64,000 nucleotides of DNA, taken from NCBI GenBank assembly GCA_001871115.1, contig MNUR01000129.1, positions 3,869 through 67,868 on the forward strand. Reading direction: 5' to 3'. A program made the position numbers and the translations under genes. The notes beneath the pieces were generated by a model. That model saw nothing but the letters and a program-made list of their open reading frames with translations. It did not search any database and had not been told where the DNA came from. Position 1 is the first letter of the stretch; each line of letters begins with the position of its first letter. This DNA is from Elusimicrobia bacterium CG1_02_56_21. GTDB lineage: Bacteria; Elusimicrobiota; Elusimicrobia; Elusimicrobiales; UBA9959. Shown here in pieces: positions 49,031 through 50,493 of the stretch.

Positions 49031-49417
49031 TCAGCAATTACAACCTATTACACAGACGCCTTTTTCGCGCAGCCCCAGCCTGGCTTCAAGGCGGGCTATG
49101 TCTTTGACGATCGGACCGCAGCACGGTTCCGGCTTGACCAGCTTGATTATGTATTCATTAAGCGGACCGGACCTCTCCGCAAGGGCGTACATAGCCCAGC
49201 GCCCCTGCTTCTCTTTACGTATCAGCCCCGCCGCGCACAGCGCGCCCAGGTAGCGTGAAACATTGTACTGGCTTTCGCCCAGGGCGTCCACAAGCTCGCA
49301 GACGCATAGTTCCCTCCCGGCATAAGCCAGCAGGGCCGCCGCCCGCAGGCGGTTGGGGTCAGCGAGCGCCTTAAGGGCTTTTACACAGGCTATAAAATCC
49401 GGCGAAGCTCTCTTCAT
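49031..49417 (-). CDS. arsR: ArsR/SmtB family metalloregulator with Cys-rich C-terminal extension
   Basis: ORF 49031..49552 trimmed to MKRASPDF (ATG 49417). wHTH with ELCVCELVDAL, plus C-terminal EPCCGPI and GVCVIGCNC. Confidence 0.85.
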   Translation of the reverse strand: MKRASPDFIACVKALKALADPNRLRAAALLAYAGRELCVCELVDALGESQYNVSRYLGALCAAGLIRKEKQGRWAMYALAERSGPLNEYIIKLVKPEPCCGPIVKDIARLEARLGLREKGVCVIGCNC

Positions 49418-49437
49418 ATATGCTATTATATGCATAT
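49417..49437. promoter_or_regulatory. candidate ArsR operator: 10-bp palindrome ATATGCATAT plus a direct TATATGC repeat one helical turn away
   Basis: Palindrome at 49428..49437, overlapping the arsR -10. TATATGC occurs at 49417..49423 and at 49427..49433. Confidence 0.4.
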
Positions 49438-49453
49438 GGCGTCCAGAAGTCAA
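49425..49453 (-). promoter_or_regulatory. consensus promoter TTGACT-N17-TATAAT for the arsR operon, with ATG 7 nt after the -10
   Basis: The minus strand reads cTTGACTtctggacgccatatgcaTATAATagcatatATG. No SD. Confidence 0.65.
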
Positions 49454-49497
49454 GTTTTCGGACCGTATTGCTCTTGTAGTCAGCGCTGAGATAAACC

Positions 49498-50493
49498 ATG
49501 TCTGCACGAAGCCGAAAAATACTAATGATGCCGGGCATGACAAGTTCCACAACTTGCGGCTTTGAACTTATTTCAGCTGAGTACACCGGCGCGGACAGAC
49601 TTGCGGCCTGGAAAGCCCGCTGGGGAATTAACAGGATGGCTTACAGGATAAAGCCCGGACTCTACGCCCTCGGCGGACCTTCCGCGTCCTCCCCCGTTTT
49701 CGCCTCCGCCAATTACAAGCTGAGCTTCGACGCCCTCCGTACGAACCTGAAAGGGATCAGCGCCTGGCTGCTGGTCCTGGACACCAAAGGAATAAATGTC
49801 TGGTGCGCGGCAGGGAAGGGCACTTTCGGCACGCTGGAACTGGCCCGCTCCATCCGGGAAAGCGGCCTGGAAAAACTGGTAAACCACCGCTCCGTCACCC
49901 TGCCCCAGCTGGGCGCCCCCGGCGTCAGCGCCCACAGGGTAAAGGCTTATACCGGGTTCTCAATCACATACGGCCCGGTCCGGGCTGAAGATATCCCGGA
50001 ATTTATAGCCTCTGGCTGCAAGGCCTCCCCGGAGATGAGAAAAGTAAGGTTCGGCTTTGCGGAAAGGATAGTTCTTGCCCCGGTGCAGTTAACCCAGTTC
50101 GGCAGATACCTGGTCCCGGCTTCGGTAATTTTACTCCTGTTCGGGCTTAAAGCCGACTCGCTCCTGACGGCGGGAGCCCTGCTGGCCGGCACGGTTCTTG
50201 TTCCCGCCCTGCTGCCCTGGCTGCCGGGCAGGAGTTTTGCCGTTAAAAGCGCGGCTGCGGGGCTGGCGACAACGACGGTTCTGTCCGCCTTCCTCCCTAT
50301 GCCTATATACCAGTTCTGCGCCCGCGGACTGATTTATTCCGCGGCAGCTTCTTTCATAGGCCTGGATTTCACAGGCGCCTCGACATACACCTCCTTATCC
50401 GGGGTTAAAAAAGAAATGCGGGCAGCCCTGCCGGCGCAGGCCCTTGCCCTTCTCGCGGGGCTTCTGCTGCTTTTATTTGGGAGATTTTTATGA
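49498..50493 (+). CDS. hgcA: mercury methylation corrinoid protein HgcA
   Basis: Diagnostic cap-helix motif NVWCAAGK (nt 49795..49818), flanked by ANYKLSFDALR and LPQLGAPGV. C-terminal multi-TM domain. The start codon is uncertain (49498, or Met 10/11/14). Confidence 0.85.
   Translation: MSARSRKILMMPGMTSSTTCGFELISAEYTGADRLAAWKARWGINRMAYRIKPGLYALGGPSASSPVFASANYKLSFDALRTNLKGISAWLLVLDTKGINVWCAAGKGTFGTLELARSIRESGLEKLVNHRSVTLPQLGAPGVSAHRVKAYTGFSITYGPVRAEDIPEFIASGCKASPEMRKVRFGFAERIVLAPVQLTQFGRYLVPASVILLLFGLKADSLLTAGALLAGTVLVPALLPWLPGRSFAVKSAAAGLATTTVLSAFLPMPIYQFCARGLIYSAAASFIGLDFTGASTYTSLSGVKKEMRAALPAQALALLAGLLLLLFGRFL

Follow-up and report, generated by a model that had tools for sequence, protein, structure and literature searches.

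The window analysed here, a 64-kb stretch of contig MNUR01000129.1 from Elusimicrobia bacterium CG1_02_56_21, contains the predicted mercury-methylation genes hgcA and hgcB, assigned by family match, and, divergent from them, a predicted arsenic-resistance (ars) operon consisting of arsR, an IscA-like gene, arsC and acr3, with arsR at its head. Between the start codons of arsR and hgcA lies a 20-bp inverted repeat, ATATGC-TATTATAT-GCATAT (a 6-N8-6 arrangement at 49418..49437, not assigned to a strand), which is proposed to be both the operator of ArsR and the core of a bidirectional promoter. The interpretation that is somewhat favoured is that this block is a bidirectional sigma-70-type promoter with a built-in ArsR operator, through which the regulator would repress transcription in both directions until it is released by a metalloid. 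The gene identities, the conservation of promoter and repeat, and the geometry of the locus were obtained from the sequence and its comparison with relatives; the start sites, the binding of ArsR, the nature of the inducer and the transcription of hgcA from the block are inferred.

The start codon of arsR, which is encoded on the minus strand, appears on the plus strand as CAT at 49415..49417, and the hgcA ATG is located on the plus strand at 49498. The intergenic spacer thus measures 80 bp (49418..49497), as had been described in the first-pass annotation of this DNA. For comparison, the spacers of about 25 related Elusimicrobiota loci were aligned on the arsR start codon (loci and contigs are designated by L numbers). 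In the aligned relatives the block reads ATATGC-TATTATA(T/C)-GCATAT, with variation at the single T/C position. The pairwise identity within the block is 0.975; it falls to 0.46 in the arsR codons beside the block, to 0.41 in the following 11 nucleotides (nt) and to 0.32 beyond the -35 element of arsR. The block is present in all 10 unique Elusimicrobiota loci, including the window, that were found without using it as bait. Within the window the 20-mer ATATGCTATTATATGCATAT is unique, and none of 100 shuffled sequences contains a match to it, even when three mismatches are allowed.

An exact-match scan of metagenomes with the block retrieved 43 contigs. Twenty of these are GC-rich Elusimicrobiota contigs, and whenever both flanks can be seen, the block separates the gene for an ArsR of 128 amino acids (aa) from that for HgcA. 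The remaining 23 contigs contain no ars or hgc genes and all except L130 are of low GC content; they were considered as possible relatives on account of the shared 20-mer and rejected as unrelated. In L130, a contig with 64% GC, the 20-mer is part of a 52-bp perfect palindrome, CAGCACGCGACTAACG-block-CGTTAGTCGCGTGCTG (8974..9025), located between unassigned open reading frames (ORFs) and without ars genes in the vicinity.

In the first-pass annotation the control function had been attributed to different elements, i.e., a 10-bp palindrome, ATATGCATAT, at 49428..49437, and a direct repeat of TATATGC at 49417..49423 and 49427..49433. Both are indeed found in the window, but they are broken in many relatives, which carry TATTATAC instead of TATTATAT, and the feature that is conserved is ATATGC-N8-GCATAT.

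On the minus strand, the -35 hexamer TTGACT (49453..49448) and the -10 hexamer TATAAT (49430..49425) together form the promoter TTGACT-N17-TATAAT of arsR, already recognized in the first-pass annotation, which reaches a promoter score of 11/12 and is the sole match at that level in the region 46000..52500. Weak promoter-like matches in the same region number 5, against 3.3 expected from shuffled sequences. The invariant TTG of the -35 hexamer, the fixed spacing of 17 nt and the TATAAT hexamer are retained in all 25 unique relatives, and the -35 hexamer is a perfect TTGACA in L002, L086 and L090. The -10 hexamer occupies the centre of the inverted repeat. The arsR ATG directly abuts the block in 19 of the 22 unique loci, with the arrangement TATAAT-7 nt-ATG, and is located 2 nt further away (9 nt) in the other three; a short arsR leader replaces the abutting ATG in L090, L131 and L134. 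Because TATAAT ends only 7 nt before the arsR ATG, the arsR mRNA is probably leaderless, as judged from this geometry. The assignment of the arsR promoter, taken by itself, can be made with high confidence.

A longer arsR ORF, starting from the ATG at 49435 or from a TTG start (173 aa), was rejected; in L004, L099 and L122 the extension does not stay in frame. The upstream in-frame ATG that is picked by some gene callers (encoding MHIIAY) is likewise out of frame in L004, which argues that the block is kept as DNA and not as coding sequence. Since the block holds ATG codons in both directions, arsR and hgcA are prone to over-extension by gene callers: in public annotations arsR (177 or 134 aa) and hgcA (352 aa) run through the block, as in L082 (4041..4574), L091 (4501..5559) and many ArsR entries of 131-134 aa, and these entries probably have wrong start codons. 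Elsewhere in the window, the ORFs at 17916 (plus strand, 159 aa) and 62071 (minus strand, 395 aa) are further leaderless candidates, with a perfect TATAAT 6 nt before the ATG.

Towards hgcA, the block contains a candidate extended -10 element, TG-c-TATTAT, on the plus strand at 49421..49429. Its hexamer TATTAT (49424..49429, block positions 7-12) and the TATAAT hexamer of arsR on the opposite strand (block positions 8-13) have 5 of their 6 bp in common, such that the two predicted promoters would share a -10 region. The hgcA ATG of L098, L102, L106 and L125 follows directly after the block (CAT-20 bp-ATG), and that of L129 overlaps the right arm. The intergenic DNA in these loci is just 18-20 bp long, the hgcA ATG lies 6-8 nt past TATTAT, and the N-termini of HgcA encoded from the block-adjacent starts, e.g., MGQNANTQKVTLSP, fit the family. 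Because of the short intergenic distance, both -10 elements in these loci are placed within the block.

These observations also bear on the alternative that the block is solely the autoregulated promoter and operator of arsR, and that hgcAB, outside the control of ArsR, is transcribed from an unrecognised promoter of its own, either within the variable stretch of the spacer or at a more upstream position; the adjacency of the genes would then reflect the landing of hgcAB in an arsenic-resistance island. The 18-20 bp between the two ATG codons leave no room for a separate promoter, and transcription from a promoter inside arsR would still read through the operator. Outside the block, the spacers of L081 and L087 are too rich in GC for another -10 element, and no other AT-rich hexamer is found in them. 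Furthermore, in L091 and L092, which represent the second hgcAB copy of one genome, the exact block is retained at a distance of 48 nt upstream of the true start of hgcA, and no arsR adjoins it. A promoter restricted to arsR would, on the other hand, be consistent with the hgcAB-less loci L137 and L138, where the same repeat, TATAAT hexamer and leaderless ATG precede arsR and the element thus predates the linkage, as well as with the gene order of L137 relative to L081, which resembles an insertion of hgcAB between two ars operons. It would also agree with the unconserved hgcA side of the spacer and with the failure to find a -35 element on the plus strand. Taken together, the separation of hgcAB from the block is regarded as unlikely.

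The hexamer TATTAT is present in all hgcA-linked loci, versus AATTAT in the hgcA-less loci L137 and L138, and its first T is unconstrained for the promoter of arsR; the apparent tracking of hgcA by TATTAT is suggestive at best. In three of the low-GC contigs retrieved by the metagenome scan (L094, L097 and L128), TTGACA or TTGACT is located exactly 17 nt upstream of TATTAT, which would fit a use of this -10 element in other organisms. A related arrangement is found in L003 and L089, where the hgcA ATG comes 6-7 nt after a perfect TATAAT that adjoins these loci's own repeat, and a predicted leaderless hgcA under predicted ArsR-type control therefore recurs in the phylum. These two loci also show back-to-back -10 hexamers, ATTATA-C-TATAAT, beside their repeat (L003 ~2040..2100; L089 ~4445..4503).

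The first-pass annotation, which had no convincing -10 element for hgcA, had suggested as its best candidate a different promoter, consisting of TTGCTC (49468..49473) and ATAAAC, together with a shift of the hgcA start to Met10, Met11 or Met14. The suggested hexamers fall in the unconserved part of the spacer, with a pairwise identity of about 0.32, and the later start is contradicted by the first residues of HgcA, which are conserved in the relatives (MxxRxQKILM) and support the start at 49498.

Between the block and hgcA, an upstream ORF of 17 codons (MASRSQVFGPYCSCSQR*, plus strand, 49436..49489) opens at the predicted hgcA-side start site and stops 8 nt before the hgcA ATG. Its position is homologous to that of the hgcA start codon of L129, and it is treated here as a remnant of an operator-adjacent hgcA start. 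The relatives include loci with no equivalent ORF, loci in which such an ORF shares the frame of hgcA, and loci in which its stop overlaps the hgcA start as ATGA. The latter arrangement is seen in L001, L081, L087 and L109, where a putatively leaderless upstream ORF extends from block position 21 to about 75 and no Shine-Dalgarno sequence is present; in this one subclade the overlap may point to termination-reinitiation or translational coupling. A functional peptide encoded by the upstream ORF is doubtful, as neither its frame, nor its length, nor even its ATG is conserved. A search for a riboswitch or other structured leader before hgcA with Rfam (48900..50000) gave nothing at E<=1, and the RNA corresponding to 49436..49510 folds no better than shuffled sequences (z = 0.39).

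The regulator adjacent to the block is encoded by arsR (49031..49417, minus strand), the 128-aa product of which belongs to the ArsR/SmtB family, contains ELCVCEL in its helix alpha-3 and is rich in Cys at the C-terminus. In family scans it scores 73 bits against NF033788 (cut-off 55) and 35 bits against PF01022 (cut-off 22), indicating a winged helix-turn-helix of the HTH_5 type. ArsR proteins of this type form a tight Elusimicrobiota clade, with sequence identities of 62-98%. The closest relative of known structure is CadC, a Cd/Pb/Zn sensor, the ELCVCD segment of which aligns with ELCVCEL and its Cys-X-Cys in alpha-3; the CVC motif is invariant in 21 relatives. Additional conserved cysteines are found at the C-terminus of ArsR, in the motifs CC and GVCVxGxNC.

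Comparison beyond the hgcA-linked loci indicates that the repeat travels with this ArsR subfamily, and not with hgcAB. In L137, an Elusimicrobiota locus without hgcAB and with an ArsR that is 68% identical, the sequence TTGACC...ATATGC-GTATAATT-GCATAT-ATG precedes arsR-arsM-arsC-acr3, and the hgcA-less locus L138 (53% identity in ArsR) has ATATGC-GTATAATT-GTATAT-ATG. More distant homologs of ArsR are accompanied by ATATGT-N8-GCATAT in Brocadiales (L140) and by GTATGC-N8-GCATGT in Nitrospirae (L139). In contrast, L003 and L089, which encode a different ArsR of 92 aa, carry a different repeat, TTCGTTAT-N8-ATAACGAA. The block is probably the operator of ArsR, as predicted from this co-occurrence.

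It could also be that the symmetry of the block reflects a bidirectional promoter alone, with two overlapping -10 elements and two start regions but no repressor, so that expression would be constitutive or controlled elsewhere. Pseudo-symmetric -10 regions are known to drive divergent transcription without a regulator (PMC12825309), and the occurrence of the identical 20-mer in 23 unrelated contigs without ars or hgc genes resembles that of an ordinary promoter. However, the arms are invariant while the adjoining promoter spacer and coding positions vary, and such constraint is unusual for discriminator and spacer bases. Retention of the far arm in L137, L138, L139 and L140, none of which has a divergently transcribed gene at this site, argues for the site of a dimeric repressor rather than for promoter symmetry alone. 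In addition, the repeat is different where the ArsR type is different (L003 and L089), and a gene for an ArsR-family repressor directly adjoins the block. A promoter without a repressor site is, accordingly, considered very unlikely.

In the favoured model of a shared promoter and operator, transcription of the minus strand would start from TTGACT-N17-TATAAT at the arsR ATG or 1 nt before it (49417/49418), and would yield a leaderless mRNA for arsR, the IscA-like gene, arsC and acr3, possibly extending into a phnD-like gene. On the plus strand, the extended -10 element TG-c-TATTAT would direct a start near 49436, giving an hgcAB mRNA with a leader of ~62 nt. The predicted divergent start sites are 18-20 bp apart and would both be spanned by the arms ATATGC and GCATAT. 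Given that 5 of the 6 bp are common to the two -10 hexamers and that both start sites lie under the arms, one ArsR dimer on the repeat would be able to block RNA polymerase in both directions. If the binding of ArsR and the assignment of the hgcA promoter both hold, co-regulation follows from the geometry. The inducer would be a thiophilic metalloid, most likely As(III), which would be bound at the invariant Cys-Val-Cys of alpha-3 and release ArsR from the DNA. Release would switch on arsenic detoxification and hgcAB together. The first-pass annotation had already proposed a single metalloid switch for both gene sets; the comparison indicates that one site very probably serves both directions, but this site is a different element than the palindrome and direct repeat to which the switch had been attributed.

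Several points weigh against the shared promoter and operator. Twenty of the relatives were retrieved by an exact match to the block, and the identity of their blocks is circular. The conservation of the hgcA-side -10 element is inseparable from that of the repeat that contains it, no recognisable plus-strand -35 element was found for the hgcA-side promoter, and the contrast between TATTAT and AATTAT rests on just two hgcA-less loci versus about 36 hgcA-linked ones. The only regulator near the block of L091 is a different ArsR (121 aa), which has a candidate repeat of its own. Leaderless geometry shows no clear enrichment across the window, with 12 cases versus 5-9 at control distances. Finally, the Cys-rich sensor is equally compatible with Hg(II), Cd(II), Sb(III) or organoarsenicals.

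The last point is related to a further alternative, in which the operator is shared as proposed, but the signal is Hg(II), another soft metal, methylarsenite or S-adenosylhomocysteine, and not arsenite. The extra C-terminal cysteines of ArsR and its relationship to the Cd/Pb/Zn sensor CadC would be in line with such a signal, as would the response of ArsR2, the hgcAB regulator of Pseudodesulfovibrio mercurii ND132, to S-adenosylhomocysteine as well as to arsenic. Against this stand the products of the operon headed by arsR, since ArsC and Acr3 handle arsenate and arsenite, and the ELCVC sequence in alpha-3, which is the classical As(III) site of R773 ArsR. A shared operator that responds to a signal other than arsenite is therefore rated as rather improbable, and arsenite is retained as the most likely inducer in the favoured model.

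To place the arrangement in a broader context, a scan with an HgcA alignment was performed with one genome per species, which yielded 80 hgcAB loci. An ars gene is found within 1.5 kb of hgcAB in 33 of these 80 loci from different species. In other phyla the ars genes are co-directional with hgcAB, in the orders arsR>hgcA (15 loci), arsC>hgcA (8 loci) and hgcB>acr3 (13 loci), and also as arsC>hgcAB>acr3. The divergent order arsR|hgcA is seen only in the four Elusimicrobiota loci among the 80. Nearly all of the further Elusimicrobiota loci, found via HgcA or ArsR, have the order phnD-like < acr3 < arsC < iscA-like < arsR | hgcA > hgcB, and the linkage of arsR, arsC and acr3 that the first-pass annotation had put forward for comparison is thus present in nearly all Elusimicrobiota loci compared.

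Many relatives (L081, L082, L087, L088, L090 and L091 ~5790..9260) contain a second operon, convergent to hgcB, with the order arsR-arsP-thioredoxin_3-(DGC)-184aa-230aa, and hgcAB is therefore sandwiched between two ars operons in those relatives. The 230-aa product matches Pfam DsbD_2 in L137. The second operon is absent from the window, where two unassigned membrane ORFs (50799..51014 and 51105..51947) are found instead. In L137 the order is arsR2-arsP-trx-193aa-230aa > arsR-arsM-arsC-acr3; compared with this, hgcAB in L081 occupies, in inverted orientation, the exact junction of the 230-aa gene and arsR. It follows that an ars super-cluster either acquired or lost hgcAB at the promoter of arsR. 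One genome, GCA_021786295.1, contains two hgcAB copies in different ars contexts (L089 and L091). In L091, hgcA is preceded by two unassigned ORFs (212 and 118 aa), the 212-aa ORF itself having a second ATATGC-N8-GCATAT repeat upstream of it. A decayed hgcA is found in L134 (3175..3672), where ~63 N-terminal residues remain and fragments of hgcB come next; the block, arsR and the ars operon are intact.

The corrinoid protein encoded by hgcA (49498..50493, plus strand) scores 405 bits against NF040863 (cut-off 275) and contains both the cap-helix and the C-terminal membrane domain of the family. The cap-helix motif NVWCAAGK (residues 100-107) is invariant in 29 relatives, and the closest relatives of HgcA, with 66-78% sequence identity, are encoded by Elusimicrobiota metagenome-assembled genomes. 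The start of hgcB (50490..50783, plus strand) overlaps the hgcA stop; its product, a 2x[4Fe-4S] ferredoxin encoded immediately downstream of HgcA, ends in SSCC, with the C-terminal Cys-Cys pair of the family, and scores 123 bits against NF040864 (cut-off 99).

On the minus strand, the operon headed by arsR was recognized as such in the first-pass annotation, and the family scans agree with its composition, at family level only for ArsC. The gene following arsR (48689..48979) encodes an IscA/HesB-like Cys-rich protein of 96 aa with the motifs GCCGP and, at the C-terminus, DCCH, which scores 27.5 against Pfam PF01521 (cut-off 26.3) and remains under the NCBIfam cut-offs. A gene of this type, encoding 96-104 aa, is kept between arsR and arsC in every locus with a 128-aa ArsR (L001, L002, L004, L081-L090 and L136), and in the hgcAB-less locus L137 its place is occupied by an ArsM-like methyltransferase gene. 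The IscA/HesB-like protein could be a metalloid chaperone. The product of arsC (48256..48675) is an arsenate reductase of the LMW-PTP, thioredoxin-type class, assigned at family level only; it matches the Pfam family LMWPc, has the CX5R loop CTGNSCRS, and scores 128 bits against TIGR02691 (the thioredoxin-coupled pI258 family), which is under the equivalog cut-off of 174. The start of acr3 (47177..48256) overlaps the arsC stop, and its product matches the arsenite efflux permease family TIGR00832 with 445 bits (cut-off 283). Just downstream of acr3, a gene for a PhnD-family substrate-binding protein (46213..47130, minus strand) is syntenic in nearly all relatives. Weak similarity links this protein to PtxB, which binds phosphite (4e-7), and to ArrX, which binds arsenate (1e-4), and its gene may be a member of the ars operon with an oxyanion-binding product.

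Neighbourhoods in which hgcAB is flanked by acr3, arsC, arsR or arsM have been described before (McDaniel 2020, Fig. 6, PMC7438021; Gionfriddo 2022; Peterson 2025, PMC11984097). The neighbourhoods of McDaniel 2020 and Peterson 2025 resemble the present locus in the presence of ars genes beside hgcAB, but they were described at the gene level, without analysis of cis-elements. In Pseudodesulfovibrio mercurii ND132, ArsR2 controls hgcAB transcription and is responsive to arsenic (Goni-Urriza 2020; Gionfriddo 2022/2023), such that the ArsR-like regulator next to hgcAB that the first-pass annotation had mentioned for this organism is indeed in the literature. Homologs of ArsR2 were reported only in Desulfovibrionaceae in the ND132 paper. 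As in the window, a gene for an ArsR/SmtB-family regulator lies directly upstream of hgcAB in ND132. However, ArsR2 is co-directional and co-transcribed with hgcAB, has no adjacent ars genes and contains a distinct four-Cys motif (Cys47/49/86/88), whereas arsR of the Elusimicrobiota locus is divergent from hgcAB, heads a full ars operon and is associated with a defined candidate operator, and its product has a different cysteine pattern with the CVC motif in alpha-3. No promoter or operator for hgcAB was found described in the hgcAB literature consulted, including the ND132 paper, which mentions neither. The linkage of hgcAB with ars genes and the control of hgcAB by an ArsR protein are thus already published, and given these neighbourhoods and the control in ND132 the gene-level claim is known and the cis-regulatory layer is apparently open. 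The defined cis-element, the divergent wiring specific to Elusimicrobiota and the probably leaderless arsR (with predicted leaderless hgcA in some lineages) appear to be new.

The proposed promoter has counterparts in other bacteria. In bacterial bidirectional promoters with a shared -10 region, start sites ~18 bp apart are the commonest, and distances of 10 and 23 bp are also common (PMC12825309). In the Escherichia coli promoter PacrA/acrR (Warman 2021; Warman 2026, PMC12825309), the -10 elements on opposite strands overlap and the start sites are ~18 bp apart, as is also predicted for the present locus; there, too, a regulator gene is located on one side and the regulated genes on the other, with a repressor site in the shared region, which corresponds to the candidate site here. 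The regulator of PacrA/acrR belongs to the TetR family and not to the ArsR family, and in the Elusimicrobiota loci the start codons are found at or near the predicted start sites, which would result in leaderless mRNAs.

In the merR/merTPAD systems of Tn21 and Tn501, one metal sensor bound to one dyad in a short divergent region governs its own gene and a metal-handling operon. A single dyad in a short divergent control region for the regulator and metal-related genes is likewise proposed here. In contrast, MerR is an activator-repressor that distorts the DNA between the -35 and -10 elements, while the ArsR family consists of derepressible repressors, and the mer genes serve the reduction of mercury and not its methylation. 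The classical autoregulated ars operons (R773 and chromosomal arsRBC) have in common with the present one the ELCVC sequence in alpha-3, the position of arsR as first gene and an operator over the promoter. They differ from the Elusimicrobiota operon in that the latter has ATATGC-N8-GCATAT as candidate operator, a predicted leaderless arsR, an inserted IscA-like gene and a promoter with its opposite face directed towards hgcAB.

The purpose of HgcAB and the control of its expression are open questions in mercury biogeochemistry, and the abundance of hgcA is a poor predictor of methylmercury production. The locus described here and its relatives provide a short and sharply defined candidate for such control, i.e., a 20-bp dyad, each face of which resembles a sigma-70 promoter, and the resulting prediction is that arsenite would induce hgcAB and arsRC-acr3 jointly. 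The proposed link with arsenic gains comparative weight from the finding that hgcAB is strictly embedded in ars clusters in the Elusimicrobiota loci that were examined. A more far-reaching proposal is that hgcAB of the Elusimicrobiota is a true member of the arsenic regulon, by way of one operator and a two-way promoter, with leaderless hgcA transcribed from the edge of the operator in several lineages; this proposal is tentative and, at present, judged improbable. If it were true, membership of the arsenic regulon would argue that the native task of HgcAB is the handling of arsenic or other metalloids, and that the methylation of mercury is a side reaction.

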